Below the pieces are notes generated by a model. That model was not told the origin of the DNA. It was given only the letters and a program-made list of their open reading frames with translations, and did not search any database. From assembly GCA_044356455.1 (NCBI GenBank), contig JBIKWF010000002.1:67202-131201 (forward strand): a stretch of DNA of 64,000 nucleotides, in the 5' to 3' direction. The DNA comes from Bdellovibrionota bacterium. GTDB lineage: Bacteria > Bdellovibrionota_C > UBA2361 > JBGSMV01. Shown here one piece after another: positions 4,043 to 51,826 of this stretch; position 1 is the stretch's first letter, and the number at the start of each line of letters is the position of its first letter. The position numbers and the translations under genes are program-made.

Positions 4043-4849
4043 GTGAGCGTACGGCCTCTCCGAACGCTCGGCCTAGAACGTTATTTCAAAACACCAATTG
4101 CGCCCCTCGCTCTGACTACTTCATGGGCGGGTGTCCATTCCGGCCACAGCCGCCCCGCAACCCAAAAAGAACGAGGAAACGCATATGAGCAGCTCACCGC
4201 AGCAGCAGGGCAAGGTGTATCTACGAATGTCCCACCGGCAGGAACAGAGATTAGCACGAGAAACATCGAGCGCGCCCGCTGGGCTTCTAAATCAACCGCT
4301 CAATTTGTATCCGGCTCAGAATTTCAAGAGCTCAAGGAGCTACACGGCCTGCATGTGATTGGAGTCGTAGGGTTCTCTGGTCAGTGGTCAGATCAAAAAA
4401 TCGAAGCCGACCCGTCACTGCGCAGCGACGCCGAGGCAGGAGCTGCGGTGCTTCGAGAATTTCTTACTCAAGCAAAGCAGCGCCACGGTTCTCGTCTCGT
4501 GGTCTCAAGCGGAGCGACTATGGAAGGCGTGCCCAAGATTATCTACTCTCTGTGTGAGGAGCTTGGCATCGAAGCGATGGGCGTCACATCCGCCAAGGCT
4601 TATGACTATGCATTGGGGAAAATGCGCTATCTGATTGTCGAAGGAGAGGACTGGGGACAGGAGTCGGCTACGTTTCTGAGGACCTCAGATGAAATAATAA
4701 TGATGGGCGGCGGCGGCCAAGCAAAGCGCGAAGCAATTGCCGCAAGCACTGAGGGGAAACCAGTAACAATTTTTCAGGGATTCAAGGGTACCGCCGACCA
4801 GCTTACGCAAGAAGACGTAAAAGGCGCTACGTTCCTCGCTCGTCACTAA
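4043..4849 (+). CDS. LOG/DprA-like Rossmann-fold nucleotide-binding protein (SLOG superfamily), start uncertain
   Basis: C-terminal half shows the VIGVVGFSG...GGGGQAKREAIAA pattern, which resembles the LOG family PGGxGTxxE motif. The first ~100 aa may not be coding. Confidence 0.5.
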   Translation: MSVRPLRTLGLERYFKTPIAPLALTTSWAGVHSGHSRPATQKERGNAYEQLTAAAGQGVSTNVPPAGTEISTRNIERARWASKSTAQFVSGSEFQELKELHGLHVIGVVGFSGQWSDQKIEADPSLRSDAEAGAAVLREFLTQAKQRHGSRLVVSSGATMEGVPKIIYSLCEELGIEAMGVTSAKAYDYALGKMRYLIVEGEDWGQESATFLRTSDEIIMMGGGGQAKREAIAASTEGKPVTIFQGFKGTADQLTQEDVKGATFLARH

Positions 4850-4904: not shown

Positions 4905-5033
4905 GTAAGGAGTCTCTGAAAAACCGCCTTTCTTAATACACCTCTGTGTACCTCCGTATTCTCTGTGGTGAAATTTTCATGAAGAATTTCACCACGGAGG
5001 GCGCAGAGGTGAATCTTTCAGGGGCTCCCTAAG
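4905..5033. repeat. MITE-like element, copy 1
   Basis: TIRs GTAAGGAGTCTCTGAAAAA and TTTCAGGGGCTCCCTAAG, with internal palindromes (ttaatacacctctgtgtacctc; ccgtggtgaa/ttcaccacgg). Ends 1 nt before a stop codon. Confidence 0.7.
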
Positions 5034-5717
5034 TCACTTTCCCTCTCTAGGGCTCGCATCAGCCGGTGTCGCAGCAGGCTCCTCCCCTTTCCCTTCTAAT
5101 TCTGCGCGAGGTTCGCGTTCCTTGATTCCTGAACGCTTCTGCACGACGGCTTCAAGCCCTTTATCACCCTCAAGCATGCGAGCAGTGTCTTTGGCGTGTT
5201 CGCCAAACTTATCCTCGGCGATTTGCTTTAGGCGATAGGCTCCCCAGAGAATTCCTCCAAGCATCGCAAGAAGTATCGCAGCCGGAATCTTTATCTCTGC
5301 CCAGTCCCTGAGGCGCTCTCCCCATACTTCTATAGAATCCTGAAGTGCCTGAGCCCGCCCAATTCCGCTTCCACGTGCACCAACACGCTTGACGTCTTTT
5401 ACATACACAGCCCCGGCAACAACATCTGATGTTTCAAGCCGCTTAAAGAGTATGCCTTTCGAGGATACTTCTTGAACTACAAGGCCCCCCTTGCGCACAA
5501 GCTCCCTCAAGTCATGCGAATCTCGAAGAGCAAGGCGAAAGGAAGTTCGTGGAAGAGAAAGGGAGGCTGTTTCTCCCTCGGGAGTTTTCGTCGCTCGAAT
5601 ATTGCTTGCGAATTCATGTTCAAGGAACTCACTGACTGAAGGGTCCAGCGCCTTCTGCTGCCCCGCGGGTCTCAGCACGACCATGTTGTTCGTATGCCGC
5701 GGTACTCGCGCAAACAT
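5034..5717 (-). CDS. hypothetical protein with a C-terminal hydrophobic helix
   Basis: Long ORF with a predicted TM segment AAILLAMLGGILWGAY. No motif recognised. Confidence 0.4.
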   Translation of the reverse strand: MFARVPRHTNNMVVLRPAGQQKALDPSVSEFLEHEFASNIRATKTPEGETASLSLPRTSFRLALRDSHDLRELVRKGGLVVQEVSSKGILFKRLETSDVVAGAVYVKDVKRVGARGSGIGRAQALQDSIEVWGERLRDWAEIKIPAAILLAMLGGILWGAYRLKQIAEDKFGEHAKDTARMLEGDKGLEAVVQKRSGIKEREPRAELEGKGEEPAATPADASPREGK

Positions 5718-6015: not shown

Positions 6016-6411
6016 TTAGCGAACCTCTGAAAAAGTCCACTCGGTGAGCTCTGTGCCCTCTGTGGTTAATTTAAACTGTTGAAAAATCAGAGAGAGAGAG
6101 AGAGAGAGAGAAAAAACTCCACTCTTAATACACCGCCGTGAACTCCGTGTCCTCCGTGGTGAATTCCTTGATGAAAGTTTCACCACGGAGTGAGCTGCAG
6201 AAATCTAGACCTGATCTTCCAGTTAATGTAGGGGTGTTTCGAGAGGGAAGCTTAAAACGCGAAGGACGCGATGGACACGAAGGTATTGAATTCTCTTCCC
6301 TTCGTATCCATCGCGTCCTTCGCGTTACAATCGGTAGCTCACAAAACCTCGGACACTGGCTGTAAGATTAAGTCGCGCCTTTCGCAGGTGAGTTTCTCAG
6401 AGGTTCCCTAA
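6016..6411. repeat. composite or nested MITE-like element, copy 2, containing an (AG)n microsatellite
   Basis: TIRs TTAGCGAACCTCTGAAAAA and TTTCTCAGAGGTTCCCTAA. The interior shares segments with copies 1, 3 and 5, plus an extra hairpin cgcgaaggacgcgatgga.../...tccatcgcgtccttcgcg. Confidence 0.65.
6089..6110. repeat. (AG)11 microsatellite
   Basis: Perfect AG dinucleotide run. Confidence 0.9.
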
Positions 6412-8044: not shown

Positions 8045-8184
8045 CTAAGGAGCTTCTCAAAGATTTCAATTCCTAATACACCTCTGTGTACCTCTGCGTC
8101 CTCTGCGGTGAACCTCTTAACTATAATTTCATCACTGAGGACACGGAGGTACACAGAGGTGAGTTTTTCATAGGTTCCTTAAGT
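8045..8184. repeat. MITE-like element, copy 3
   Basis: TIRs CTAAGGAGCTTCTCAAAGA and TTTTTCATAGGTTCCTTAAG, with interior palindrome ttaatacacctctgtgtacctc.../...gaggtacacagaggtg. Confidence 0.65.
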
Positions 8185-10003: not shown

Positions 10004-10195
10004 TTAGGGAACCTCTGAAAAACTAGCTCTCGGCATCCCCCCGACTCCGCCAAAGCTATGCCGCGGCCGCACTGAAGCCAGGATCGACGCAGGAGTAGGC
10101 GGCTCCGCGTTCATTGAAACGTATTGTATAGCGCCGAGGACGCGGGGTACGCGGAGAAAAAAAAACAATCTGGGGGTTTTTCAGAGGTTCTTTAG
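10004..10195. repeat. MITE-like element, copy 4
   Basis: Near-perfect TIR pair TTAGGGAACCTCTGAAAAA / TTTTTCAGAGGTTCTTTAG. The right TIR supplies the trxB stop codon. Confidence 0.75.
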
Positions 10196-11283: not shown

Positions 11284-13155
11284 ATGAAGCAGCAACATAC
11301 TAGAATCAGTAAAGTTCTAATTGCAAACCGAGGCGAAATCGCCCTTCGCATCCAACGCGCCTGTCACAAACTTGGAATAAAAACGGTCTCGGTGGCCTCC
11401 GAAGCTGATAAGGAAAGCCTCTTTGCCCGAAGTGCGGATGAGCTTGTCATCATCGGCCCGGCCCCCGCCCGTGAATCCTATCTGAGAGCGGACAAACTTG
11501 TTGAAATTGCAAAAGAGCGCGGCTGTAACGCAGTACACCCCGGCTATGGATTTCTTTCCGAGAACGCTGAATTTGCCCAGCGAGTAGAGGATGCAGGCCT
11601 TATCTTCATAGGCCCAAGCCCCCAAAGTATCGCCGCGCTTGGAAGCAAGACTAAAGCTAAGGCCATCGCGGCCGCAGCCAAGGTGCCCTGTGCGCCAAGT
11701 AGTCCCGCCGGACTCTCAAATGAAGAGCTCCTTAACGCAGCCGATAAAATTGGCTACCCCGTTCTCGTAAAGGCTGTCGCGGGCGGCGGTGGGCGAGGCA
11801 TGCGAAACGCCTTTAATCGAGAGGAGCTTGCCGAGGCACTCCCAAGAGCACGCGGGGAGGCCCTTAAGTTTTTTGCCAATGAAGATATATACCTGGAAAA
11901 GCTCATCGACCGACCTAGGCACGTTGAAGTTCAGATCTTCGGAGACAAGCATGGCAATCTTGTTCATCTAGGAACTCGTGACTGCTCCACACAACGCAGG
12001 CACCAAAAACTCATCGAGGAGGCACCTGCCCCTCACTTATCCCCAGAGCTCCGCGCGAGAATTCACCAAGCGGCCTTAGCAGCAGCACGAGAATCTGGGT
12101 ACTACAATGCCGGCACCGTTGAGTTCTTAGTAAAAGACGGAGAATTCTTCTTTCTTGAAGTAAACACGAGAATCCAGGTCGAGCATCCCGTTACAGAAGC
12201 CATCACAGGGCTAGACCTGGTGGAGCTCCAGCTTAGAGTTGCTCAAGGAGAGAAGCTCCCCTTCACTCAGGATGAAGTTACGTTCACAGGGCATGCCATT
12301 GAATTTCGAATTTGCGCAGAAGACCCCGCCCAAGGGTTTAGGCCGGCGACAGGTAAAATTACCACGCTACGCTCCGCTAAATTCCCTTGGGTAAGGGAGG
12401 ACACGGGCTTCCTGGAAGGAGACAGCGTTTCATCACATTACGACTCCATGCTCTCCAAAGTAATCGTTCTTGGCGGCTCACGCGGCGACGCCATCGATAA
12501 AAGCCTAGAGTTTTTGAGTAGTTATATCATTCTAGGAGTGCCCTCCACAATTGCTTTGCATCTTTGGGCTCTATACAATGGGCTGTTCCGGTCTCGCCCC
12601 CTAGATATAGGCTACGTGGAGCGAGAATTTTCTGTTAAGAGTTTGTTAGGACTTCGCGCTGCTGAGGTTCGGGACCCGGAGTGGCGTCTGCCCTTAGGAA
12701 TATCCCTTGGAACAGCTTCCTGTGAAGCTGCTTCTCGTGAGTCTGATTCCCACAAGCCTTCCCAAAAGGAGGAGTGCTTACAAGGAACGACGAGAACCAA
12801 GGATTTGTTGCTTCCTAAGACGCAGAACCCGGGATCAGGTGAGCATCAGGCTGATAAGGCCTTAAATAGTCAGGGACCTTTAAGTCCCGGCTTATGTGAA
12901 CTCGATCCAATAGGAGCAACCGTGAAAGGAGCGAACGTGAAGAACGTATATCAATATCAGTCAGAGAAATTTAAGACTACTTATACCATTGAAATCCTTC
13001 ATAAGCGTGATGGATTCTTCGTGGCGGTCCCTGTTGATTCCTCCGGTCGCAGAGGAAAGAGCAACAACTGCCGCATGTCGAATGGACTTAATACGGTGAT
13101 GCATTCTCTTATCCACGACGTTCTTGAGAAGACGCCGCCTTCAGAAATATTCTAA
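11284..13155 (+). CDS. accC: biotin carboxylase (acetyl-CoA carboxylase subunit) with a ~170-aa non-canonical C-terminal extension
   Basis: ATP-grasp biotin carboxylase sequence through about residue 450 (KVLIANRGEIALRI..., EVNTRIQVEHPVTE). The remainder is low-complexity with no EAMKM biotinyl motif. Confidence 0.8.
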   Translation: MKQQHTRISKVLIANRGEIALRIQRACHKLGIKTVSVASEADKESLFARSADELVIIGPAPARESYLRADKLVEIAKERGCNAVHPGYGFLSENAEFAQRVEDAGLIFIGPSPQSIAALGSKTKAKAIAAAAKVPCAPSSPAGLSNEELLNAADKIGYPVLVKAVAGGGGRGMRNAFNREELAEALPRARGEALKFFANEDIYLEKLIDRPRHVEVQIFGDKHGNLVHLGTRDCSTQRRHQKLIEEAPAPHLSPELRARIHQAALAAARESGYYNAGTVEFLVKDGEFFFLEVNTRIQVEHPVTEAITGLDLVELQLRVAQGEKLPFTQDEVTFTGHAIEFRICAEDPAQGFRPATGKITTLRSAKFPWVREDTGFLEGDSVSSHYDSMLSKVIVLGGSRGDAIDKSLEFLSSYIILGVPSTIALHLWALYNGLFRSRPLDIGYVEREFSVKSLLGLRAAEVRDPEWRLPLGISLGTASCEAASRESDSHKPSQKEECLQGTTRTKDLLLPKTQNPGSGEHQADKALNSQGPLSPGLCELDPIGATVKGANVKNVYQYQSEKFKTTYTIEILHKRDGFFVAVPVDSSGRRGKSNNCRMSNGLNTVMHSLIHDVLEKTPPSEIF

Positions 13156-13236
13156 TCAGGAATATTCAAGCGAGTGTCGTTCTAACTCGCTAGAGCCTTC
13201 TTTAAGTGATGTAGCTCCTTGAATCAGAACTGTAAG

Positions 13237-13270
13237 AAAAAAAGGGCCCTTCGGGGTCCTTTTTTTTTAC
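13237..13270. terminator. rho-independent (bidirectional) terminator
   Basis: A7-AGGGCCC-TTCG-GGGTCCT-T9: a 7-bp GC-rich stem with a tetraloop, flanked by an A-tract and a T-tract, downstream of accC. Confidence 0.7.
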
Positions 13271-13455
13271 CTTTTGGCGGCACTGAAACAAGATCTTCCA
13301 GTTTCCTAGGACTTTATACGCTCAACTAGCAGAGTCCCAAACCCATAGGCCAATTAGCGAACAAGCGAGAACCGTCTCGCGATACCAAGTCTCTTTGCTC
13401 GGAGCGTCTCCCGGGAGGGGGAAAACGCTTTTTGCCGAGCATGTGAAGGCGGACT

Positions 13456-18030: not shown

Positions 18031-19074
18031 ATGACTTTTAATAATCACTTAGCGACTGTCGAGAAGAAGGATAAGCAGATACTCGAGATTCTTGCGCAGA
18101 ACTGCCGCATCCCGCACACCACGCTTGGCGCAGCCCTTGGCGTCTCAAAAGACACTATCGAATACCGCATCCAGCGGCTCGAGCGCGAAGAACTCCTCAA
18201 GCAATTCGTCCTCTTCATTGACGCCCGAAAGCTTGGGCTTACTCGCTACCATCTGCTTCTTTCTTTTGAAGCACCGGTAGGAGATCTCACCGTCGTTTGC
18301 AATCAATTCGCCGCCCATCCCTTTGTGATGTGGGTGAACAGTTTTATTGGACGGTATGATGTTCAAATAATTGTTGATGCGCGAAACGGCTTTCATCTCA
18401 ACGAAATCAAGAGTGAACTTTTTGCAAAAACTGCTCTTAAGATTCGAGACTACCGCATCTTAACCCACCTGTCGGACCTTGAGTTCACTCAACTTAATCC
18501 TATCCTTGATTTAAAGACTGCCTTTGAAAGAAAGGCCGATCACTCTTTCAGTGATATGCTCACGAACAAGCGCTTTCCTGTCTCTGAAACTTTTGAGCTC
18601 TGCCCACTCGCGAAGGGTGATTCGCAGATTCTCAAAGCCCTCGCTGATAATCCGCGCATGAGCATTTCCGATATTTCAGACGCTGCGGGACTCGACAGAG
18701 TTACGACGCGGCGCCACATTCTAAGCCTTATCAAGAAGGGAATAATCTTGAACTTTGGGGGCATACCCAATCTTTCTCGACTAGGATTTGTAACTTATTA
18801 CCTCCTGGTAAGAGTGTCTCAGGACACGCCTCTTAGGATACTCAAACGCCCCTTTGAGAAACTCCGGAACATCTTCTATGCAGGCCGCATGCTCGGGGAC
18901 TACGACATGATTCTGTACCTTAATGCGAGAACTCCCGAGGAACTCTACCAGAGCATCTCTCTCTACAAGAATGAGCTGAAGTCTCACATCGTTCACTATG
19001 ATCTTCTTATTCAGGACAAAGTGCACCACTGGAGGCAATTCACTCCGGGCATTTTCCAGAGTTTCGCGAGCTAA
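18031..19074 (+). CDS. tandem-duplicated Lrp/AsnC-family transcriptional regulator
   Basis: Two successive AsnC-type HTH segments (KQILEILAQNCRIPHTTLGAALGVS... and SQILKALADNPRMSISDISDAAGL...), each followed by a RAM-like domain. Confidence 0.75.
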   Translation: MTFNNHLATVEKKDKQILEILAQNCRIPHTTLGAALGVSKDTIEYRIQRLEREELLKQFVLFIDARKLGLTRYHLLLSFEAPVGDLTVVCNQFAAHPFVMWVNSFIGRYDVQIIVDARNGFHLNEIKSELFAKTALKIRDYRILTHLSDLEFTQLNPILDLKTAFERKADHSFSDMLTNKRFPVSETFELCPLAKGDSQILKALADNPRMSISDISDAAGLDRVTTRRHILSLIKKGIILNFGGIPNLSRLGFVTYYLLVRVSQDTPLRILKRPFEKLRNIFYAGRMLGDYDMILYLNARTPEELYQSISLYKNELKSHIVHYDLLIQDKVHHWRQFTPGIFQSFAS

Positions 19075-19207
19075 GAAAACTCTGAAAAAGTCTGCTCTGT
19101 GAACTCGGTGCCCTCTGTGGTTGATCTAACTTATTAAAAAACCACAGAGGACACAGAGATCACAGAGAGAAAGAATAAGATGACGAGGTCTTTGAGAGGT
19201 GCCTAAG
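19071..19207. repeat. MITE-like element, copy 5
   Basis: TIRs CTAAGAAAACTCTGAAAAA and TCTTTGAGAGGTGCCTAAG, with interior palindrome ccctctgtggtt.../...aaccacagaggaca. The left TIR supplies the TAA stop of the Lrp gene. Confidence 0.7.
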
Positions 19208-19246: not shown

Positions 19247-19801
19247 TTAATCTTCCTCCGCAGGTGACGCGCGAAGCCCCCCAATCATGAGCCCAAATCC
19301 CACTACCGCAAATACGAGTCCAAAGATTAGGTATCCCGTAATCGCTCCCCAACGAATATCACGAAACACAACCGCATCTTTAGGATCCGAAGGATTCACA
19401 AACACCGGGAACATTGAGTCAGAGCGGATGAAGGGTTTTAATTCTTCAAGTTTACTAAGATGAAAATCTGACAGGCTGTCGGAGCCAAGATAAAAATGAA
19501 GTCGAGTGCTCTCAAACTGCCTTCCTTCATAATCATAACGGAACCGCCCCACGAGCCTATAAGTCGGTCCACTCTCACTATCCGAGGTCACTTCCACTGA
19601 GGCCTCTTGTATATGCGCGGGAATTTGAGTCCACGAAGTTGACTGCGCACTACGCAACAGCGGCCAGAGCCCGAGACCTATGATGCCTGTCCCGGCGAGT
19701 GCAAAGGGTAGGGCAAGAGCGAGAAGGCATCCTATACCAAGTCTGTTACTAGGCCTTACGGGTAAAGAAGCAGTGCCGGAGGGCTTTGATTTCTTGCTCA
19801 T
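19247..19801 (-). CDS. DUF3592-like membrane protein
   Basis: Two TM helices flanking a beta-rich extracytoplasmic domain. Confidence 0.45.
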   Translation of the reverse strand: MSKKSKPSGTASLPVRPSNRLGIGCLLALALPFALAGTGIIGLGLWPLLRSAQSTSWTQIPAHIQEASVEVTSDSESGPTYRLVGRFRYDYEGRQFESTRLHFYLGSDSLSDFHLSKLEELKPFIRSDSMFPVFVNPSDPKDAVVFRDIRWGAITGYLIFGLVFAVVGFGLMIGGLRASPAEED

Positions 19802-22021: not shown

Positions 22022-22060
22022 ATCGTCATTATAGATGTGGATTTTCGCGAAAATCCACAT

Positions 22061-22276
22061 CTATAATGTGCGCGCGCGTAAGAGACTAATATTTATGGAG
22101 AATTTACCTCCGAATTGAAGTTCGAAAATCTGGAAAGGTCTTACCCGTTCGTTTATTGCGTGATTCTCTGGTAACCACTCCCTAAGGCTCGGTGGCAGCA
22201 GTAACACTTGATCGGGATGATACGGGCGGAACGTTGTCGCTTTCCCTTTCGCTACCACTACATGCTGTGGTGGCAA
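22061..22276 (-). pseudogene. IS1182/IS5-type transposase N-terminal fragment (remnant)
   Basis: FRPYHPDQVLLLPPSLREWLPENH matches the conserved N-terminal motif of IS1182-family transposases. The ORF stops after ~70 aa. Confidence 0.6.
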
Positions 22277-22347
22277 CCGGGACAGCCCCCCCTACGGATT
22301 GTGTCCAAAATGAGGATTTATGTTTCTACGGGACACACTCCTAGCCC
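22265..22347. mobile_element. ~80-bp IS-end-like repeat, copy A
   Basis: About 85% identical to 41030-41112 (tggtggc..gggacagcccccctacgga...gatttatgtttcta.gggacacactcctagc). Contains an internal inverted repeat tgtgtcc/ggacaca. Confidence 0.6.
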
Positions 22348-22429
22348 CTAATGCTCATACGCCCTCCAAGGCTCCGAACTCCCTAGAGTGCTGCAAGTAG
22401 CCCTTTTCGCGATCCCCTCGAATAGGGGC

Positions 22430-22744
22430 TCAGCTCGCCTCTTCTTCTGCCGGGCGTGGTGCCGCAACTTCCTGCTCCTCGAACCCCAAGATGTCGACAT
22501 AAGAAACACCCTCGGCCAAAAAAGAGGAAGGCACTGCCGACTGCCCCTTAAGCTGTATCCGCCGAGTCTTGAAGAGCTCCTTAAATGACTTACGTGAGAT
22601 CACTTTGAGCTGAGAATTTCTATCCTGAGCTCTAAGCTCAGCTAGCAGCACCGCATCTAAGCGCTGAGCAGTCGCAAGGTTGAGAATGACGCGGAAGGAG
22701 TTTTTAGGCTGAGGGGGAGCCTGTATATTTAAAGGCTGTTTCAT
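22430..22744 (-). CDS. S4-domain RNA-binding protein
   Basis: RLDAVLLAEL...SRKSFKELFKTRRIQLKGQ resembles the S4 alpha-L motif. Confidence 0.55.
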   Translation of the reverse strand: MKQPLNIQAPPQPKNSFRVILNLATAQRLDAVLLAELRAQDRNSQLKVISRKSFKELFKTRRIQLKGQSAVPSSFLAEGVSYVDILGFEEQEVAAPRPAEEEAS

Positions 22745-23427: not shown

Positions 23428-23510
23428 CCTAAGGGACCTCTGAAAAACTTCCCCTTAGTGATCTTGGTATTCTTAGTGGTTGTTTTTATAAGCCACTAAA
23501 GACCAAGACA
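23428..23510. repeat. MITE-like element, copy 6 (partial: left TIR and palindrome only)
   Basis: CCTAAGGGACCTCTGAAAAA followed by the palindrome cttggtattcttagtgg.../...ccactaaagaccaag. No right TIR found. Confidence 0.45.
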
Positions 23511-24398
23511 GCCTCGCGTCTCATCAACAAGCTGCTGCTCAACCTTGTAATAAATATCACCGTGCATTGCTCTGTCTGAGGTTAAAACTCGCAGAGTCGA
23601 ACTCGAAGGAACTGCAGATGATATTCCTGCAAGGTGCGAGAATGGGATGATTTCGTCTTTTTCGCCGTGCGCTAGAATCACACACTGAGATGTTAACTTT
23701 CTTAAGTAATCGCGCACCGGAAAGCGATATCGTAGTCCAAATCGAAGCAAACTATAGGGGGGCTTCTCGGCGACGAGCTCCGCAAAATCTTGATAGCCCG
23801 CAACGATAATCAGTGCGCGTGGCTGAATTTTACTTGCGAGATATGCCGCTGGTCCACTTCCGATGGAATTCCCAAGTAACACAAATTTCGAGAAAGGTAG
23901 GCCTGTAAGATTCTGCACCATCGCCGCTGCAGCTTCGGCATCCTTATAGATCCCTTCCTCCGATGGCCAGCCTGTTGAATGTCCATAGCCTCGGTAGTCA
24001 AACGTAAGAGCTGGTATCCCAACTTTTTTAAAGAAGGGAATAAAATTCTGTTGCTCCGCTGTCTCTCCGTTCCCATGAAAAATAACCGCAACGAATGGTG
24101 GCTCCTCCCCTTCGGAGAGCGTCGTGAAAGCCTGAAGAGTTTCTCCGTCACTTGTCGAAAGTTTTAATTCGCGCACACCAGGAAGCAAAACAAATGGCGC
24201 GCTGCTCTTGGGGAAAGTAACGCCTGGGAAAATGAAAAGTTCCTGCTGCCAAAGCACGTAGCCGGAGAGCACGAGCACTGGAATGAGCAAAAGGATAATA
24301 GCTTTGAGTAGACGCTCGACTACCTTTTTGACCCTCATCACCGTCATATCGTCCAATTCAAGAAACCTCAAAAGCCAGAGTCTCGGGTTACAAATCAC
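23496..24398 (-). CDS. alpha/beta hydrolase with an N-terminal membrane anchor
   Basis: HGNGE oxyanion region and a GNSIG nucleophile elbow (GxSxG). Confidence 0.7.
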   Translation of the reverse strand: MICNPRLWLLRFLELDDMTVMRVKKVVERLLKAIILLLIPVLVLSGYVLWQQELFIFPGVTFPKSSAPFVLLPGVRELKLSTSDGETLQAFTTLSEGEEPPFVAVIFHGNGETAEQQNFIPFFKKVGIPALTFDYRGYGHSTGWPSEEGIYKDAEAAAAMVQNLTGLPFSKFVLLGNSIGSGPAAYLASKIQPRALIIVAGYQDFAELVAEKPPYSLLRFGLRYRFPVRDYLRKLTSQCVILAHGEKDEIIPFSHLAGISSAVPSSSTLRVLTSDRAMHGDIYYKVEQQLVDETRGCLGL

Positions 24399-24533: not shown

Positions 24534-25991
24534 ATGGACATGAGCATAGACGAAACGCCTCAGCTCTCCATTCTGATTGTCGAAGACGACGCGTCTCTCT
24601 CAGACGCACTAAAAACCTCGGTTGAAGGCGCGGGGTATCATGCTCAGACGGCCCCCTCTCTGCAAGCAGGAGTCGCAAGCATACGGTCTCAGCCTTTTGA
24701 CATCGTGCTCTGTGATTTACGCCTGCCCGATGGGGACGGGCTGGGCTTCATAAAGACTGCGAGGGAATCAGCACCCAATTGCTCTACTGTTCTCATGACC
24801 GCTTTTGGCAGCCACGACCTCGCCTTACAGGCACTGCGGGAAGGCGCCTACGACTACGTCGCTAAGCCTTTTGACATGGAAGAGCTTCTCTTCCTGCTCA
24901 GAAAAATTGAAGAGAAGAAAAAATTAGAGCTTGAAAACGCCTCACTTCGCTCTGCAATTACTCAGCGCTTTTCATTCGCAAACATCGTCGCCAAAAGTGA
25001 TTCGATGCGAAGCATTTTTTCGACGGTGAAACGCCTCGCGGCGTTCAGCACCACCGTACTTATCACGGGAGAATCTGGAACGGGAAAGGAGCTTCTCGCG
25101 CAAGCGCTCCATTACAACTCACCGCGGCGAGGAAAGCCATTCGTTGCAATAAACTGCGGAGCCATTCCGGAGTCACTTATTGAATCTGAGCTTTTTGGCC
25201 ATAAAAAAGGCTCATTTACTGATGCCACTCGCGACAAGCGCGGGCTTCTTGAGGAAGCAAGCGGAGGCACTATTTTCTTAGACGAAATAGGCGAGATGCC
25301 ACTCCATCTGCAAGTAAAACTGCTTCGCGCACTGCAAGAGCAGCAAATTCGGCGGGTAGGAGATGAGCAGCTCATTAGTGTTGATATTCGGGTAATCGCC
25401 GCGACGCTGCGCGACCTTGAGGAAGATATTAAAAAGGGCCGCTTTAGAGACGACCTCTTTTATCGCCTCAATGTAGTGTCGATTCACATACCACCTCTTC
25501 GCGATCGGCCGGAAGATATTCCTCTCCTGGTCGAACACTTTATGACTAAACATGCCAAGCGCCTTGGACTGCCGACGCGCGTTTTCTCTCCCGAGGCAAT
25601 GCAAGTTCTCATGAGCTACTCATGGAAGGGCAATGTACGCGAACTCGAAAATTGTGTTGAACGAGCCCTCGTCCTCAGCGACACCGACGCTATCGATCCG
25701 TCGGTGTTCCCTGAACACGTCCGAGGGAAAACTCAACCGGCGCTTAAGCCACAACCCGAGGGAATTGGCAGCGACGTGCTTTCAATCAAGCAACAAACGA
25801 AAGCTCTTGAAATTGATCTCATTCAGCGCGCTCTCACTCGAACTGGGGGCAATCGTACTCGCGCTGCGAAAGTGCTTGAAATTAGTCACCGCGCGCTACT
25901 CTACAAGCTCAAAGAGTACGGCCTAGGCGGACCGCATGGAGCCGAGACTGCCCCCGCCGCTGCAGACCACGACGAAGAAGAGGTGGCCTAA
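24534..25991 (+). CDS. sigma-54-dependent response regulator (NtrC family)
   Basis: Receiver domain (phospho-acceptor Asp in LCDLRLPDGDG), AAA+ sigma-54 activator domain (GESGTGKE, a GAFTGA-like GSFTDA, ESELFGH), and a C-terminal Fis-type HTH. Confidence 0.9.
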   Translation: MDMSIDETPQLSILIVEDDASLSDALKTSVEGAGYHAQTAPSLQAGVASIRSQPFDIVLCDLRLPDGDGLGFIKTARESAPNCSTVLMTAFGSHDLALQALREGAYDYVAKPFDMEELLFLLRKIEEKKKLELENASLRSAITQRFSFANIVAKSDSMRSIFSTVKRLAAFSTTVLITGESGTGKELLAQALHYNSPRRGKPFVAINCGAIPESLIESELFGHKKGSFTDATRDKRGLLEEASGGTIFLDEIGEMPLHLQVKLLRALQEQQIRRVGDEQLISVDIRVIAATLRDLEEDIKKGRFRDDLFYRLNVVSIHIPPLRDRPEDIPLLVEHFMTKHAKRLGLPTRVFSPEAMQVLMSYSWKGNVRELENCVERALVLSDTDAIDPSVFPEHVRGKTQPALKPQPEGIGSDVLSIKQQTKALEIDLIQRALTRTGGNRTRAAKVLEISHRALLYKLKEYGLGGPHGAETAPAAADHDEEEVA

Positions 25992-26137
25992 GCCATTAAT
26001 CTTACTAAACAAAACTACCTCTGAAAATAGCGGGCCCCGCGTACCGAAACACCCCCTCTGCGCATCTAAAATGATGGGTAGCCATACTTACGTCCCTCTT
26101 GGGCAGGATCTACGGCCGCCGTTTTAAAAGGTTTTCC

Positions 26138-27289
26138 ATGAGTACTCGCTCCTCAAAACCGGCCCCCTCTAAGGAACTAACTGGGATCTCCCTGTGGAAC
26201 AATCGCCGCGTACTTATTACGGGCCACACTGGTTTCAAGGGCAGTTGGCTCTCCCTTTGGCTGAGAAGCTACGGAGCTCTTGTCACAGGCTACGCTCTTC
26301 GTCCGCCTACTTCTCCAAGCATGTTTGAAGCATGCAATCTCAAGGACCACGTCGCCTCCATTGAGGCTGACATTCGCGACTACCCTCGACTTGAGGAGGT
26401 CATGCGGGCGGCGAAACCAGAGATAATCTTTCACCTCGCCGCACAACCACTGGTGCGAGAATCCTACCGAACTCCCAGAGAAACCTTTGAAGTAAACACC
26501 ATGGGAACGGTGAACGTACTCGAAGCCATGCGAACCGTTGGCGGAGTACGCGCACTCGTGACCGTCACCACTGATAAATGTTACGAGAATAAGGAATGGG
26601 TCTGGGGCTATAGGGAGACCGACCGACTTGGCGGACGAGATCCTTACGCCAGCAGCAAGGCCTGCACGGAGCTCGCTGCCGATGCCTACCGACGCTCCTT
26701 CTTTCCTGTCGATGCCTTAGATGACCATGGCGTCGGAATAGCCACGGCGCGCGCGGGAAACGTCATTGGGGGAGGAGACTGGGCTGCGGAGCGGTTAGTG
26801 CCAGATTTGATGCGATGTTTTTCAGAAGGCCGCAAAGCGACACTGAGAAATCCCGCTGCGGTGAGACCGTGGCAACATGTGATTGAACCTCTCTTCGGCT
26901 ATATAAGTCTAGCTGAACATCTCTTTAACGGAAGTCCTTGGGCATGTGATGCGTGGAATTTTGGGCCTGACAATGCCGGAATTGAAACGGTCGGCGAACT
27001 TGCCGAACTCGTTTCAAAGGCGTGGGGCAAAGGATCGGCGCTCGAAGTTCAAGCTCCGGATCCCGCTCTCTATGAAAGCACTCTCCTCTCTCTGGATAGC
27101 ACGAGAGCTCAGCAGCTCCTCGACTGGCACCCACGATTTAGCGTTGCTCAGGCAGCCGAAATGACAGTGAAATGGTATAAGCTGTTCTACTCAAAAGCTC
27201 CCGCGCAGGAGCTTCGAGATCTTGCACTTGAGCAGATTGCGAGCTACGGCAATCAAGGCTCACGCAAGGATTTTGAGGCGCGTGCGTAG
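26138..27289 (+). CDS. ddhB: CDP-glucose 4,6-dehydratase
   Basis: RVLITGHTGFKGSWLSLWL is nearly identical to the RfbG/DdhB N-terminus. Extended SDR fold. Confidence 0.85.
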   Translation: MSTRSSKPAPSKELTGISLWNNRRVLITGHTGFKGSWLSLWLRSYGALVTGYALRPPTSPSMFEACNLKDHVASIEADIRDYPRLEEVMRAAKPEIIFHLAAQPLVRESYRTPRETFEVNTMGTVNVLEAMRTVGGVRALVTVTTDKCYENKEWVWGYRETDRLGGRDPYASSKACTELAADAYRRSFFPVDALDDHGVGIATARAGNVIGGGDWAAERLVPDLMRCFSEGRKATLRNPAAVRPWQHVIEPLFGYISLAEHLFNGSPWACDAWNFGPDNAGIETVGELAELVSKAWGKGSALEVQAPDPALYESTLLSLDSTRAQQLLDWHPRFSVAQAAEMTVKWYKLFYSKAPAQELRDLALEQIASYGNQGSRKDFEARA

Positions 27290-30407: not shown

Positions 30408-32039
30408 GTGAAACAACTTGAGTGCGGCACGATAATAACAGCAAAAGGCCACGTGGCGGAGCCTCCTGCGCCATGGCTTGTGCTTGAACGACTGGACAAT
30501 TCCTCGTTAGAAGTCCTTGCACTCTCTGCGCAGCAGAAGACCAAACATAGTCCGGCAATCGCAACGCTTGGCCCTTCGGCAGACCCAGCGTTTCCCATCA
30601 CTCCCCTCTTTTGCGACGTTTCCCGCAGATTCCAAATCTCGCTCTCAGGCGAGGAGAAGATCCTTGGAACGGTCTCCTCTTCGTGCAAAGAGGAGATTCT
30701 CCGTGGCTTAGTCAAAAACGAGGCTGAGCGCTTCTACTCCGCATTCCATGCCCCCAAGCTTTCTAAAGCATTCGCGCCAGGCGATCGCATCCCCTATGCC
30801 GGCCGCGTTTACGATTTTGAGGACATGGCCTCCCTGCTCGATTCATCACTTGATTTCTGGCTCACGACCGGAAGATTCTCCGAAGAATTCGAGCGTGCCT
30901 TTGCAAAGTTTTTGGGCCTTAGATTCTCATGCCTGGTTAATTCGGGTTCGTCGGCAAACTTGATTGCTTTTGCAGCGCTCACCTCCCCCCTCCTCAAAGA
31001 TCGCCAGATACAACCAGGAGATGAAGTAATCACCGTAGCCGCGGGCTTTCCGACTACGGCTTCGCCTATTATTCAGTACGGTTGTATCCCCGTCTTCTGT
31101 GACATCTCGGTAATGGATGGCACCTATAATATTGACGTGTCTGCTCTCGAGTCGGCGCGCAGTGAGCGCACCAAGGCAGTCATGCTTGCCCATACTCTCG
31201 GCAATCCGTTTAACCTTAAGGTAGTCACCGAATTTTGCCAGCGCCATAATCTGTGGCTTGTGGAGGACAACTGCGACGCACTTGGCTCTCGCTACCAAGG
31301 ACAGCTCACAGGCACTTTTGGCGATGTGGCGACAAGCAGCTTTTATCCACCGCATCACATGACCATGGGCGAAGGCGGCGCCGTTTACTCCAAACACTTA
31401 AAGCTGAAGCGAATAATCGAGTCATTTCGAGACTGGGGGCGGGACTGCTGGTGCGCTGCCGGAAAAGATAACACCTGCGGAATTCGCTTCGATCAGCAGC
31501 TAGGCACGCTGCCCCGAGGCTATGACCACAAGTATATCTACAGCCATTTTGGCTATAATCTTAAAGCTACCGACATGCAGGCAGCGATTGGCTGCACTCA
31601 ACTCAAGAAACTTCCAGATTTCATTAAGAAGCGTCAGCAGAACTGGAAGTTTTTACGTGAGGCTCTTACGGGCCTTAGCGATATTTTTGTGCTGCCAGAG
31701 GCTACTGCGAATTCAGAGCCGAGTTGGTTTGGATTCTTGCTCACCATCAGACCTGAGGTTTCCTCAAGCGCCCAGGCTCCGACCCGTGATTCCTTTGTGC
31801 GCCTATTGGAATCTCTTAACATTCAGACTCGCATGCTGTTCGCAGGTAATCTTTTAAGGCAGCCCTGCTTCGATGAGATAAGAAAGGACCCTAAAAGGTA
31901 TCGGGTAGTCGGCAAACTTGAACAAAGTGATCTTGTACTCACCAATACGTTTTGGCTTGGTGTTTATCCGGGGCTCACGGAGGATATGCTTTCCGCCATG
32001 GTGCGTGGAATCTATCAAGCCGTTGGCAGAAAGTCCTAA
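30408..32039 (+). CDS. ddhC: CDP-6-deoxy-D-xylo-4-hexulose-3-dehydrase-like (DegT/DnrJ/EryC1 family), start uncertain
   Basis: LDFWLTTGRFSEEFERAF...SGSSANL matches the RfbH/DdhC N-terminal region. The ORF is about 95 aa longer at the N-terminus than a typical ~440-aa DdhC. Confidence 0.75.
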   Translation: MKQLECGTIITAKGHVAEPPAPWLVLERLDNSSLEVLALSAQQKTKHSPAIATLGPSADPAFPITPLFCDVSRRFQISLSGEEKILGTVSSSCKEEILRGLVKNEAERFYSAFHAPKLSKAFAPGDRIPYAGRVYDFEDMASLLDSSLDFWLTTGRFSEEFERAFAKFLGLRFSCLVNSGSSANLIAFAALTSPLLKDRQIQPGDEVITVAAGFPTTASPIIQYGCIPVFCDISVMDGTYNIDVSALESARSERTKAVMLAHTLGNPFNLKVVTEFCQRHNLWLVEDNCDALGSRYQGQLTGTFGDVATSSFYPPHHMTMGEGGAVYSKHLKLKRIIESFRDWGRDCWCAAGKDNTCGIRFDQQLGTLPRGYDHKYIYSHFGYNLKATDMQAAIGCTQLKKLPDFIKKRQQNWKFLREALTGLSDIFVLPEATANSEPSWFGFLLTIRPEVSSSAQAPTRDSFVRLLESLNIQTRMLFAGNLLRQPCFDEIRKDPKRYRVVGKLEQSDLVLTNTFWLGVYPGLTEDMLSAMVRGIYQAVGRKS

Positions 32040-32061
32040 CCGCTTCATCTCAACGGTTACT

Positions 32062-32197
32062 CAGGAGCCCCTGAAAAACCTCGATATTTTATTCTTTCTC
32101 TCAGTGTCCTCTGTGTGCTCTGTGGTTTTTCAACGATTTAAATCAACCACAGAGGACACAGAGATCTCAGAGTGGACTATTAAAGAGGTTACCTAAG
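32062..32197. repeat. MITE-like element, copy 7
   Basis: TIRs CAGGAGCCCCTGAAAAA and TTAAAGAGGTTACCTAAG, with interior palindrome cctctgtgtgctctgtggtt.../...aaccacagaggacacagag. Confidence 0.7.
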
Positions 32198-49262: not shown

Positions 49263-50369
49263 CTACGCGCCAAAGAATTTCTTTACTTCTTGAATTACGG
49301 TCGCAATTTGCTGATCCGTTAATTCTGGATAAATCGGCAAGCTGAGAATTCTCCCTGACTGCCTTTCCGTGACAGGAAAATCGCCGCGCTTGTAGCCAAG
49401 GTCTCGGGCGCACTCTTGGAGGTGAATCGGGATTGGATAGTGAATCTTTGTTTCAATACCCTTTGCCAATAAGTGATCACGCAGTTCATTGCGGCGGTCG
49501 GTCTGGATAATAAACGTGTGATAGACCGCGTACTCGTAGTCCTTGTCGGTAGGGACCTGGACGTAGGGAGCGAGCGCCGCTTGGTAGACGCCAGCAATCT
49601 CACGAAGCCTCGTGGTCCAGGCTTCAATGTGATTCATCTTTACGTTCAGGATCGCGGCTTGGACGGTATCAAGTCTTGAATTAAAGCCCCATACTTCACA
49701 CTCATCGCGGTTCTTTAGACCGTGATTTCTCAGCTTAAGAAGAAGCTTGTAGTATTCTTCGTTATCCGTGGTCATCACGCCCGCGTCGCCTGCGGCGTTT
49801 AAGTTCTTCAGCGGATGTAATGAGAAGCAGCCGATATCGCCAAGAGCCCCGACTCCTTTACCACGGTAACGCGCAGCTACCGCCTGAGCAGCATCTTCGA
49901 CTACCTTAAGCCCCTTCCGCTTAGCGATGTCCATGATAGGCGCCATATCTGCGGAGCGCCCCGTCAGATGAACGGGCATGATTGCCTTCGTGCGCGGAGT
50001 AATAGCCTTTTCGATTTTTTCTGGGTCAATGTTGAAATCATCTCGCACGTCGGCAAAAACTGGGCGGGCGCCGGCGGCGACAATAGTCCATGCGCTTGCA
50101 AGAAATGAATTGGGCGCTGTGATAACTTCGTCGCCCGGGCCTACGCCAAAAACTTTAAGTGCAAGAAATAATGCATCACTTCCGTCTGCTACACCTAAGG
50201 CGTAGCGGCTTCCGTGCAGCTTTGCGAAGCGTTCCTCAAATTCGGGAACAGCAGGACCTAGAATGTAATTTCCCGACGACAGAACTTCTTCGACTTTGGG
50301 CATGATTTCTGCCCGGAGCCTTGAGAACTGAAGTGGGATATCAATGTATTTAACTTTTATCTCGCTCAT
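49263..50369 (-). CDS. DegT/DnrJ/EryC1/StrS-family sugar aminotransferase
   Basis: PLP-fold AAT motifs. Its ATG overlaps the upstream stop (ATGA), indicating translational coupling. Confidence 0.85.
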   Translation of the reverse strand: MSEIKVKYIDIPLQFSRLRAEIMPKVEEVLSSGNYILGPAVPEFEERFAKLHGSRYALGVADGSDALFLALKVFGVGPGDEVITAPNSFLASAWTIVAAGARPVFADVRDDFNIDPEKIEKAITPRTKAIMPVHLTGRSADMAPIMDIAKRKGLKVVEDAAQAVAARYRGKGVGALGDIGCFSLHPLKNLNAAGDAGVMTTDNEEYYKLLLKLRNHGLKNRDECEVWGFNSRLDTVQAAILNVKMNHIEAWTTRLREIAGVYQAALAPYVQVPTDKDYEYAVYHTFIIQTDRRNELRDHLLAKGIETKIHYPIPIHLQECARDLGYKRGDFPVTERQSGRILSLPIYPELTDQQIATVIQEVKKFFGA

Positions 50370-51469
50370 CGGTAGAAGCTCCGAATACAATCGACTACAT
50401 AACCGAGTTCATCGTGAGTTAAATGCTGATGCACAGGCAGAGAAAGCATTATTTCCGCATGCCTCTCTGCGACCGGGAAATCTCCGCGCTTATAGCCTAG
50501 ATATTCGCAAGCTTTTTGAAGGTGCAGCGGAATAGGATAATGCACTTTTGCTTCAATTCCTTGCTTCAATAGGAAGGCAAGCAGGTCGTCGCGCTTCTTG
50601 TCTACGTACACCACGTAATTATGGTGCACCCAGCGCATGTTGGGGTCGCGAGGCGCAACGCGGAGCTGGGGGATCTTCGCGAACTCTTGGTCGTAGAAGT
50701 CGGCGTGTTTTCGGCGCTCTCCAATAATCCAATCGAACGTTTCTACTATGTGTAGTCCCACAACGGCGTGAAGGGTATCGAGGCGGCAGTTGTAGCCAAA
50801 GAAATCACAGTGGTCACGGTCGCGCAGACCATGGTTGCGAAGTTTCTGGAGTTTCTCCGCCATCTCCTTAGAGCTTGTCGTGATAACTCCGCCATCACCC
50901 CAGACATTTAGGTTCTTGAGAGGATGAAGACTAAAGGCACCGGTGAGACCGTAAGAGCCAGAGCGCTTGCCGTGGAGTTCTGCGCCCATCCCTTGGCACG
51001 CATCTTCAATCACCTCGAGGCCGTGCTTCTTTGCGATTTCTAGAATGCGCGGCATGTCGGACATCGCGCCCATCAGGTGCACGGGAACGATTGCTTTTGT
51101 CTTGGGAGTAATCGCTCGCTCGATTTGAGTGACGTCGATACAAAAGTCATCTCGGCAATCAACAAAAACAGGGCGCGCTCCTGTCGTCGCAATCGCTCCT
51201 CCTGTGGCATAAAAGGTGTTCGCCGCGGTGATGACTTCATCGCCAGGTCCAATGCCGAGAGCGACAAGAGAAAGCCGGATTGCATCGGTGCCGGTTCCTA
51301 CGCTGACTGCGTAAGGAGTCTTGCTCACGATTCTCGCAAATTTTTCTTCTAATTCTGCTACCTGCTTTCCTAAGGTGAAGTCGCCGCTTTTTAAGAGCGC
51401 CCTAAGGCTATCGAAAATTGGTTCTGGATTGGCGAACTGTCCAGGGAGGTGAGAGTAGCTGACCTTCAT
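50366..51469 (-). CDS. DegT/DnrJ/EryC1/StrS-family sugar aminotransferase (paralog)
   Basis: About 50% similar to the downstream paralog (VPVHLMGAMSDM... against MPVHLTGRSADM...). The likely start is at MKVSYSHL. Confidence 0.85.
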   Translation of the reverse strand: MKVSYSHLPGQFANPEPIFDSLRALLKSGDFTLGKQVAELEEKFARIVSKTPYAVSVGTGTDAIRLSLVALGIGPGDEVITAANTFYATGGAIATTGARPVFVDCRDDFCIDVTQIERAITPKTKAIVPVHLMGAMSDMPRILEIAKKHGLEVIEDACQGMGAELHGKRSGSYGLTGAFSLHPLKNLNVWGDGGVITTSSKEMAEKLQKLRNHGLRDRDHCDFFGYNCRLDTLHAVVGLHIVETFDWIIGERRKHADFYDQEFAKIPQLRVAPRDPNMRWVHHNYVVYVDKKRDDLLAFLLKQGIEAKVHYPIPLHLQKACEYLGYKRGDFPVAERHAEIMLSLPVHQHLTHDELGYVVDCIRSFYR

Positions 51470-51683
51470 GATGGGACCCTTCTCAAAAAATACAGATGCG
51501 AGCGCCCGCCGAAGCCTGCCTTTGACAGGAACTCCCACGCGCGAAACACCCTTAAGAGAACCGAGCCGCAAAAGACGCCCCCTGCCCTCTTCGCTCCCCA
51601 TGGTAGCGAGAAAAGGCAGAGCCCCATAGCCACATCCTTTTGGCCTCTCTTTCTGTTGGGATGTCTGCCGAGGCCAACCGGTT

Positions 51684-51826
51684 CTTAGGGAGTCACCCGA
51701 AGGACCCTAAGATGGGCAAATTTTCCCTTCCCTTTGTGAACTCTGTGGTCTTAGTGGTTTATGAAAACAACCACTAAGACCACAGAGACCACTAAGGGGA
51801 ATTTTTTAGAGATCCCTGAGGCTAAA
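51684..51826. repeat. MITE-like element, copy 9 (diverged)
   Basis: TTAGGGAGTC... at the left and TTTTTTAGAGATCCCTGAGGCTAA at the right, with interior palindrome ctctgtggtcttagtggtt.../...aaccactaagaccacagag. Confidence 0.5.

Follow-up and report, generated by a model that had tools for sequence, protein, structure and literature searches.

Why should a family of palindromic repeats sit so often at the 3' ends of genes, in some cases with the stop codon of the gene within the repeat? The window, by which we mean the whole 64-kb stretch of DNA analysed here, comes from the genome of an uncultured Bdellovibrionota-like bacterium, and a preliminary description of it listed nine such repeats and a further fragment, favoured a Tc1/IS630-like origin with a TA target, and proposed that their insertion may have re-defined protein C-termini. 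We find that the repeats are very probably IS5-type MITEs with a YTAR target, and that an insertion at a stop codon duplicates the stop and leaves the protein unchanged, so that copies accumulate there.

The observation that started the analysis, dispersed MITE-like palindromes at gene 3' ends, some of them holding a stop codon, is supported, and the repeats are in this part confirmed as a genuine dispersed family enriched at such ends. The window holds nine elements, here called A to I, and one weak fragment; the elements are non-coding foldback sequences of 60-400 bp in multiple dispersed copies. The terminal inverted repeat of the family is 15 nt long, GGAACCTCTGAAAAA. A scan of the window with the 19-mer TTAGGGAACCTCTGAAAAA gave eight matches at up to three mismatches where 0.01 were expected, and a scan with the 15-nt core recognised GGAACCTCTGAAAAA at both ends of A, B, C, D, E and G and at one end of F (23433-23447), H (44452-44466) and I (51802-51816), which bears out a nine-copy family with common ends. 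The count also agrees with the described density of about one copy per 7 kb, every copy lying inside the first 52 kb. The interiors are as rich in hairpins as had been described, with folding energies of -28 to -65 kcal/mol and z-scores of -4.5 to -9.4 against shuffles, truncated H excepted (z -2.6). There are four subfamilies (A, C and the middle of B; E, G and the left part of B; D and H; F and I), and the kinship of the copies extends beyond the inverted repeat: A, C, B, E, G, I, F and two copies from relatives can be aligned through their hairpin arms. A scan of the whole window at Rfam gathering thresholds gave no match, and a relaxed Rfam scan of 22060-22440 returned a chance-level match only.

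The placement of the copies was described less accurately. Seven of the nine do lie within 0-60 bp of a stop codon, but C and I are found in divergent promoter regions. The copies had also been said to follow the orientation of the gene that they adjoin; because they are near-palindromes and four of them are positioned between convergent genes, orientation is undefinable, and we assign no strand to any of A to I.

The kind of transposon behind the family is indicated by its ends. A one-genome-per-species scan with TTAGGGARCCTCTGAAAAA as the query found at least 111 contigs, and hosts among the matches listed include Pseudomonas, Alcanivorax, Nitrosomonas, Rickettsiales, Acidobacteria and Chloroflexi as well as CPR groups, Chlamydiae, Cyanobacteria and Bdellovibrionota. 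Many matches stand at contig ends, as expected of a multi-copy repeat, and at several loci an ORF starting MSQLTFAE begins ~45 nt after the motif. The 19-mer end sequence bounds ~1.15-kb elements in Pseudohongiella L042, Vreelandella L009, L035 and others, and in L042, L009, L035 and L012 the 15-19-nt ends bound elements of 1.05-1.17 kb with ORFs matching the L042 transposase. The L042 element is 1156 bp long, with the motif inverted at its far end and CTAA on both sides, and the L009 element is 1165 bp long with TTAG on both sides. The 316-aa ORF of L042 scores 309.5 bits against the NCBIfam model NF033581, 'IS5 family transposase' (cut-off 140), contains Pfam DDE_Tnp_1 and DUF772, and shares 57% identity with plasmid ORFs whose annotation is IS5-like ISPre1/IS1384-family transposase.

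The same collection settles where the inverted repeat stops. When, among the matches listed, the four bases outside GGAACC...GGTTCC were scored for 79 pairs of ends (~60 contigs, many phyla), the flanks were TTAG/TTAG in 22 cases, CTAA/CTAA in 16 and inverted in 2. Because they are direct far more often than inverted, TTAG/CTAA is a target-site duplication and lies outside the inverted repeat. In another metagenome a second group of MITEs has this inverted repeat between direct 4-bp flanks that are not YTAR (CTCC, TAAT, AGAA, AACT), which establishes independently where the repeat ends and that the duplication is 4 bp long. In relatives, young and near-identical copies of 127-128 bp, collected by a metagenome scan with the inverted repeat and the hairpin unit, have perfect YTAR duplications. 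The target duplication of IS5 is likewise 4 bp, 5'-YTAR-3' (PMC5009759; PMC5493358). On the strength of the common inverted repeat, the YTAR duplication and the IS5-family transposase in full-length elements, the window elements are, as far as sequence can tell, IS5-group MITEs that duplicate (C/T)TA(A/G). Matching ends, a YTAR duplication, small and dispersed transposase-free copies and mobility, which are the marks of an IS5-type MITE, are all found in the family. The transposase itself gave no tblastn match within the 64-kb window and was found in none of 17 related loci (L112-L128) either, so the trans-mobilising partner in this genome is unobserved; we infer that the source genome encodes, or once encoded, a cognate transposase.

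With the boundaries set in this way, the focal and best-preserved copy, D (10004-10195), consists of the duplication TTAG (10004-10007), a left inverted repeat GGAACCTCTGAAAAA without mismatch (10008-10022), an interior (10023-10176), a right inverted repeat with one mismatch (10177-10191) and a second TTAG (10192-10195), which holds the TAA stop of trxB on the minus strand (10192-10194). An identical D is present on an independent metagenome contig of the same organism (L116). In E (19071-19207) the left duplication, CTAA (19071-19074), holds the TAA stop (19072-19074) of a fused Lrp/AsnC-type gene (18031-19074); the left inverted repeat (19075-19089), the hairpin (19095-19167) and the right inverted repeat (19189-19203) follow, the right flank reads TAAG, or CTAA supposing that the right repeat is one base short, and the stop of gene 19247-19801 (minus) is 40 nt away. 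For both copies the preliminary description had placed the stop codon in the terminal inverted repeat. It does lie in the terminal tetranucleotide, but that tetranucleotide is the target-site duplication. The third copy on a stop codon, F (23429-23498), is truncated on its gene side. It has a left CTAA (23429-23432), a left inverted repeat (23433-23447), one hairpin arm and a loop, and a right CTAA (23495-23498), which is TTAG on the minus strand and holds the TAG stop of a hydrolase gene (23496-24347, minus). Its gene-side inverted repeat is missing or degenerate, the second hairpin arm is supplied by the hydrolase gene's own 3' end, and the same structure recurs in L131-L133, from other samples of the same organism.

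Perfect duplications within the window are confined to D (TTAG/TTAG) and F (CTAA/CTAA), and the flanks of A, C and G agree at three of four positions. All window copies other than D and F are decayed, with B a nest and H a solo end. A (4905-5032; flanks GTAA and CTAA) has inverted repeats at 4909-4923 (two mismatches) and 5014-5028 (three mismatches) around a hairpin at ~4939-5010 (-59 kcal/mol, z -7.3), and lies between the convergent genes 4043-4849 (plus) and 5034-5717 (minus), the TGA stop of the latter being 1 nt from its right flank. C (8045-8182; flanks CTAA and TTAA) has inverted repeats at 8049-8063 (four mismatches) and 8164-8178 (one mismatch) and a hairpin with 34-nt arms at 8079-8161 (-64.9 kcal/mol, z -9.4). 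It is placed in the divergent promoter region between pepA (minus) and a plus-strand gene at 8370 on the basis of the most likely pepA start, ~7986, which C precedes by 59 nt. G (32060-32196; flanks CTCA and CTAA) is separated by 20 nt from the stop of the DegT-type aminotransferase gene upstream of it (30408-32039, plus), with a left inverted repeat at 32064-32078, a hairpin at 32088-32184 and a degenerate right inverted repeat at 32178-32192, and is 78% complementary to E.

B (6016-6411), 48 nt downstream of the pepA stop, is a composite of at least 2-3 elements. TTAG, a left inverted repeat (6020-6034) and the left half of an E/G-type hairpin are followed by an (AG)n run (~6086-6108), by an A/C-type interior without its own inverted repeat (6110-6195), by a hairpin with 28-bp arms of CGCGAAGG-type units (6256-6326), and by a right inverted repeat (6393-6407) with CTAA. 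Its inverted flanks (TTAG/CTAA) show that it is not a single insertion and, together with the pieces of at least two subfamilies and the (AG)n run, identify it as a nest. H (44371-44470) is the right half of a D-type element and lacks a left inverted repeat. Its interior matches that of D (44363-44415 against 10092-10144, 75%), it ends with a right inverted repeat (44452-44466) and CTAA (44467-44470), and it follows the stop of a gene for a 913-aa repeat protein (44509-47250, minus) at a distance of 38 nt. I (51684-51820) has a degenerate left end, a hairpin with perfect 30-nt arms (51730-51798; -63.5 kcal/mol, z -7.4) and a right inverted repeat with three mismatches (51802-51816) and the flank TGAG, and stands in the divergent promoter region between genes 50366-51601 (minus) and 51890-52894 (plus). 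The further fragment that had been noticed near 26020, ACTACCTCTGAAAAT (26014-26028, plus), between genes 24534-25991 and 26099-27289, is a doubtful solo inverted repeat: it has 4 of 15 mismatches, and shuffled windows give 13.6 matches each at up to four mismatches, which puts it at chance level, no better than the shuffled background. An exact-protein look-up of the carboxylase encoded at 11284-13155 gave no match.

What does an insertion do to the protein when it strikes a stop codon? Every (C/T)TA(A/G) target includes TAA or TAG, so a stop codon with a pyrimidine before it is itself a target. Insertion there duplicates the stop, and the reading frame still closes at its ancestral position. 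The gene-proximal copy of the duplication and everything upstream of it are ancestral, so the in-frame TAA or TAG was already the stop and the C-terminus was not re-defined by the insertion; the protein is unchanged because its stop codon is duplicated with the target. In a compact genome, stop codons would then be the least harmful landing sites, where copies could be expected to accumulate.

Comparison with orthologs agrees with this for two of the three proteins, against the proposal that insertion had re-defined C-termini. The trxB gene (minus) ends ...GGT AGC TAA, where CTAA is the duplication beside D, and a relative with 92%-identical TrxB and no element ends ...GGG AGC TAA, with the same AQGS* C-terminus; an 88% TrxB relative ends AQGN*. 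The hydrolase gene ends TGT CTT GGT CTT TAG in the window (CLGL*), where TTAG is the duplication of F, and the CLGL* end is also found in its closest homolog and in L134, which carries another element. The C-termini of TrxB and of the hydrolase are thus shown to be unchanged. The Lrp-like case is less clean: the gene ends ...GCG AGC TAA, CTAA being the left duplication of E, and keeps the conserved WRQFTPGI(F/Y) block, but its final residues are FAS* as against FSNFSN* in the 82%-identical, element-free L117. The tails of Lrp-like proteins vary across all homologs, and here the statement that the protein is unchanged rests on the logic of target duplication and not on a matching ortholog. Two other possible effects on C-termini were considered and rejected. 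The IR-like sequence TTTTCCAGAGTTTCG at 19052-19066, within the Lrp-like gene, is not the relic of an older MITE that encodes the C-terminus, because it is a conserved coding stretch in L117 and WRQFTPGI(F/Y) is conserved in all homologs. Nor has F truncated the hydrolase by ~14 residues, as the longer L114 ortholog might suggest, since CLG plus 0-3 residues is the normal end in nine homologs and L114 is an outlier.

Stop codons are hit more often than the supply of targets predicts. In this lineage half of the insertions, 7 of 14, are on a stop codon (D, E, F, L134, L119, L122 and L127) and the other seven are off it (A, B, C, G, H, I and L126). The window offers 126 available non-coding YTAR sites, 20 of which overlap stops (~16%; 106 others), and the excess is significant (7/14 vs 20/126, p = 0.003), within the small numbers and simple greedy ORF calls on which these statistics are based. 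Among the 127-128-bp copies of relatives, the duplication is the stop of the flanking ORF at three of four independent loci. Nor is the excess peculiar to this lineage: among the matches listed from other phyla, which were collected with a 19-mer that demanded TTAG at one end, 9 of 38 MITEs with perfect duplications lie on a stop codon against a background of 9.4% (p = 0.007). We infer that the excess reflects mainly survival rather than active targeting, since an insertion at a stop codon is protein-silent and leaves promoters untouched. A preference for easily melted 3' regions has been proposed for IS5 (PMC5493358), and an active preference of this kind may be an alternative.

Relatives show that the family has moved. 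The best named matches of TrxB are to uncultured Bdellovibrionota/Oligoflexia, and the closest species representative is Bdellovibrionota bacterium JTS-AC239 (GCA_041739995.1; 76% TrxB identity), which has at one locus (L058) a MITE of 145 bp that shares its inverted repeat and type of hairpin with the window family. Two further loci at 76% TrxB identity, L129 and L130, have 0-1 inverted-repeat matches in 21 kb each, so the high density is confined to the close lineage. No D follows trxB in the relatives L112, L114 and L115, and in L117 the ortholog of the Lrp-like gene has no E after it. In L134 the gene for the hydrolase (74% identical protein) ends ...CTC TAG and is followed directly by GGAACCTGAAAAA ... 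TTTTTCAGAGGCTCC CTAA, a 262-bp element of the D subfamily that is homologous to D beyond the inverted repeats. The same hydrolase stop codon has thus received different subfamily members in two relatives, F in the window and a D-type element in L134; the trxB gene of L134's sample has no D, so D-type elements sit at different stop codons in two genomes. This placement is direct evidence that the elements move and that they land on stop codons repeatedly. Among the relatives compared we obtained no empty site matching on both flanks, because synteny breaks at the insertion points, and related copies sit on separate contigs of the relatives.

The interiors have a structure of their own. Each hairpin arm, ~28 nt long, is a tandem array of three 9-nt units in which CTCTGTGNN pairs with NNCACAGAG and whose variants include CTCCGTG, CTTAGTG and CCTTCGCGT, and the autocorrelation at lag 9 is 0.6-0.8 against ~0.2 at other lags. 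One 9-nt unit is unpaired in A, which suggests slippage between units. In the family alignment the pairing holds in 86.7% of cells, compared with 82.5% for shuffles and 40-52% for slid partners, and both partners have changed in 9 of 30 pairs, a count that 25 of 500 shuffles also attained. The hairpin is therefore a conserved feature of the family with some compensatory change, although the signal is modest and the copies are phylogenetically non-independent.

Such hairpins raise the question of transcription termination. A standard terminator scan left the elements unflagged because their loops exceed its 8-nt limit, and a custom scan for a hairpin followed by a T-run was used in its place. 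On the upstream gene's strand (pepA, trxB and a DUF3592 gene), it finds in B, D and E a hairpin of -30 to -48 kcal/mol with T5-T6 beginning 0-1 nt after it; in D and E the inverted repeat itself supplies this T-run at its inner end. In the young copies L119, L126 and L127 both strands have the arrangement, one with T7 and the other with T5. Ordinary short terminators are also present in the genome, for example at 13233-13270. A terminator-like layout is not a general property of MITEs with GGAACCTCTGAAAAA: in other phyla it was found in 9 of 38, against 27 of 114 interior-shuffled controls, and that idea was rejected.

A role as terminator or stabiliser is plausible for the hairpin-bearing subfamily, going by its predicted folds. 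Extending the MITE model, one may tentatively propose that this subfamily has been retained because it brings to stop codons a portable intrinsic terminator or 3'-end stabiliser that often works in both directions. Its U-tract would be either an internal T7 run or the AAAAA/TTTTT on the inner side of the inverted repeats. We think this proposal possible, but would not expect it to hold. It is favoured by the hairpins of L119, L126 and L127 (-35 to -41 kcal/mol, T5-T7 within 0-3 nt, both strands), by the same arrangement in B, D and E on the upstream gene's strand, by pairing that is kept across subfamilies, with nine doubly changed pairs, by the over-representation of stop-codon sites, and by the precedent of terminator-like SPRITE MITEs (review PMC10969869). 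It has to contend, however, with C and I, in which hairpin and T-run stand on one strand without an upstream gene on that strand, with A, G and L134, in which the arrangement is missing, with the lack of any excess in MITEs of other phyla, with covariation that is modest and phylogenetically non-independent, and with a short hairpin and T-run ~80 nt beyond D (9922-9909, trxB strand) that could be the original trxB terminator. Stated more boldly, this IS5-type MITE subfamily would be a self-delivering 3'-end module of the Bdellovibrionota lineage, terminating or stabilising transcripts in both directions, a proposal that we consider unlikely. Its YTAR target would place the element exactly on TAA and TAG stops, which insertion would regenerate; it would bring a ready-made strong hairpin between A- and T-runs; and its arms of three 9-nt units, varied yet paired, would be kept by selection on structure. 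If this were true, transposition would have installed part of the genome's terminator repertoire.

The repeats might instead be host-evolved REP-like palindromes or intrinsic terminators, arisen in place or spread by recombination or a RAYT-type (IS200/IS605-like) enzyme. Their intergenic, hairpin-rich character and frequent position at 3' ends would fit, as would the T-run after the hairpin in some copies and a half-hairpin without inverted repeats that follows trxB in L112. Host palindromes would hardly be expected, however, to have conserved 15-nt terminal inverted repeats with 4-bp target duplications and to share the inverted repeat with IS5-family insertion sequences across phyla; two copies are in promoter regions, and the genome has its ordinary short terminators (13233-13270) as well. 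The search for a RAYT gene took the form of a Pfam scan of ten element-flanking ORFs. We regard a REP-like origin as very improbable. Least credible of all, with next to no chance of being right, is the affiliation first favoured, to MITEs of an IS630/Tc1-mariner-type transposon with a TA target and TTAG/CTAA within the inverted repeat: TA does occur in the termini and short, palindromic, abundant elements do resemble Tc1/IS630-derived MITEs, but the duplication is 4 bp long, the flanking tetranucleotides are direct and not inverted (38 vs 2), another MITE group has TA-free 4-bp duplications (CTCC, AGAA, AACT) around the same inverted repeat, and full-length elements with GGAACCTCTGAAAAA ends encode an IS5-family DDE_Tnp_1/DUF772 transposase.

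The reading as IS5-type MITEs places the family among known systems. To our knowledge REPs are without terminal inverted repeats or target duplications, and they depend on a Y1 (IS200/IS605-like) enzyme. REP and BIME sequences are like the window family in being extragenic palindromes, often at 3' ends, for which mRNA stabilisation has been proposed; unlike REP/RAYT systems, the window elements have both inverted repeats and duplications. Correia elements of Neisseria and SPRITE of Streptococcus pneumoniae are similar in size (~100-150 bp), foldback structure and abundance near genes, but show no sequence relationship and no IS5-type ends. Correia elements have a TA duplication and 26-bp inverted repeats, and they affect transcripts. 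We take GGAACCTCTGAAAAA to differ from the inverted repeat of E. coli IS5. A search of published full texts for GGAACCTCTGAAAAA returned unrelated primer matches only, which is weak evidence of novelty, and a literature search on MITEs in Bdellovibrio gave nothing relevant. IS5, ISPre1 and IS1384 share the 4-bp YTAR duplication with the window elements (PMC5009759, PMC5493358), which differ from them in being 60-400 bp long and transposase-free.

IS5-family-derived MITEs are known from two other hosts: ATR of Neisseria meningitidis, with the parent ISNme1, and BrickBuilt/MITEPgRS of Porphyromonas gingivalis (PMC4596501). Like the window family they are non-autonomous, with inverted repeats that match the IS5 family, and are intergenic, multicopy and sometimes nested, with internal repeats; the ISNme1 terminal inverted repeat, GAGACCTTTGCAAAA, is identical to GGAACCTCTGAAAAA at 11 of 15 positions. 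They differ in host lineage and have unrelated interiors. BrickBuilt has irregular duplications and a 23-nt minisatellite interior, in contrast to the clean 4-bp YTAR duplications and the hairpin arms of three 9-nt units in the window family, and landing on stop codons, present in the window family, is absent from the BrickBuilt paper (PMC4596501). A review of MITEs discusses terminator-like examples such as SPRITE, and the phrase 'stop codon' is absent from it (PMC10969869). The window family is abundant in its lineage and of IS5 type, and IS5-derived MITEs as such are already known.

The analysis thus corrects the classification of these repeats from IS630/Tc1 to IS5 type and re-defines their boundaries. 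The coincidence of element and stop codon follows from the target sequence, the proteins that could be checked being unaltered, and annotators need not suspect altered C-termini, because the stop codons are the duplicated target. More generally, elements that target (C/T)TA(A/G) have a built-in safe harbour at TAA and TAG stops, one stop codon can be struck independently in related genomes, and the excess at stop codons extends to MITEs of other phyla with the same inverted repeat. Should the hairpin subfamily indeed terminate transcription, regulatory 3' ends would here have been put in place by transposition.

Some copies of the IS5-type MITE family in the window are altered, and a relative carries a possible remnant of one. 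Directly after the trxB stop of the related locus L112, which lacks the element that follows trxB in the window, lies a half-hairpin, AACCACTAAGACCACAGAGACCACTAAGGG (L112 4106-4144), with 97% identity to window 51760-51798, one arm of element I. It stands there without inverted repeat or partner arm, and may be the relic of an element lost from the trxB 3' site. The truncated element F has kept one hairpin arm, which forms base pairs with the final codons of the neighbouring hydrolase gene itself (window 23453-23507; TCTTGGT with ACCAAGA, plus CTTAGTGG with CCACTAA), and the unit of this arm deviates from the family consensus toward complementarity to the hydrolase coding sequence. This complementarity may be coincidental, or it may have arisen through a microhomology-mediated deletion or by templated correction. 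In the composite element B, about ten AG units form a microsatellite, (AG)n, in place of one hairpin arm (6086-6108); it appears to be derived by growth from CAGAG units.

Other intergenic sequences in the window are also repeated or conserved. A second repeat of about 115 nt is present in two copies (22233-22350 and 40999-41115) that share 86% identity over their best 58 nt, with the core CCCCCTACGG...GATTTATGTTTCTA(C/G)GGGACACACTCCTAGC. It is unrelated to the MITEs and has no IS5-type ends, and Rfam returned only a chance-level match. The window (13396-13429) and the relative L112 (718-751) share a 34-nt block, GCTCGGAGCGTCTCCCGGGAGGGGGAAAACGCT, with 100% identity in intergenic DNA that is otherwise diverged. 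Close by in the window, at 13233-13270, is a canonical bidirectional terminator.

Within coding sequence, a 913-aa ORF on the minus strand (44509-47250) consists mostly of 7-8 tandem 243-nt (81-aa) repeats with 66-80% identity, and collagen-like Gly-X-Y triplet repeats occur at 39438-39613 and 41940-42016, within the minus-strand ORFs 38779-39909 and 41668-42450, respectively. The gene at 18031-19074 encodes a fused double Lrp/AsnC-type protein of 347 aa, whose named homologs (55-63% identity) are all labelled Woesearchaeota or Nanoarchaeota except for two close matches. Such archaeal labels are odd for a Bdellovibrionota-like genome, and suggest transfer or mis-binning in public data.

The ends of the MITE family are also found elsewhere. 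A 191-bp MITE in metagenome Ga0197142 (L120, L123, L124, L125 and L128) has the inverted repeat GGAACCTCTGAA(A/T)AA, as in the window family. Because its 4-bp duplications are CTCC, TAAT, AGAA and AACT, none of which is (C/T)TA(A/G), target choice with the same ends is apparently relaxed or different in another organism. MITEs of 142-145 bp with ends as in the window family occur among contigs L001-L111 (for example L024, L044, L059, L096 and L105) and have a common interior, ...AAGGCAAAAA...GCGAAAAAGCGGAGTTTA.ACG...TAAATGAGCAT. Since they are found again in Pseudomonas, Cellvibrionaceae, Nitrosomonas and other Proteobacteria among the matches listed, these elements are a widely spread subfamily.
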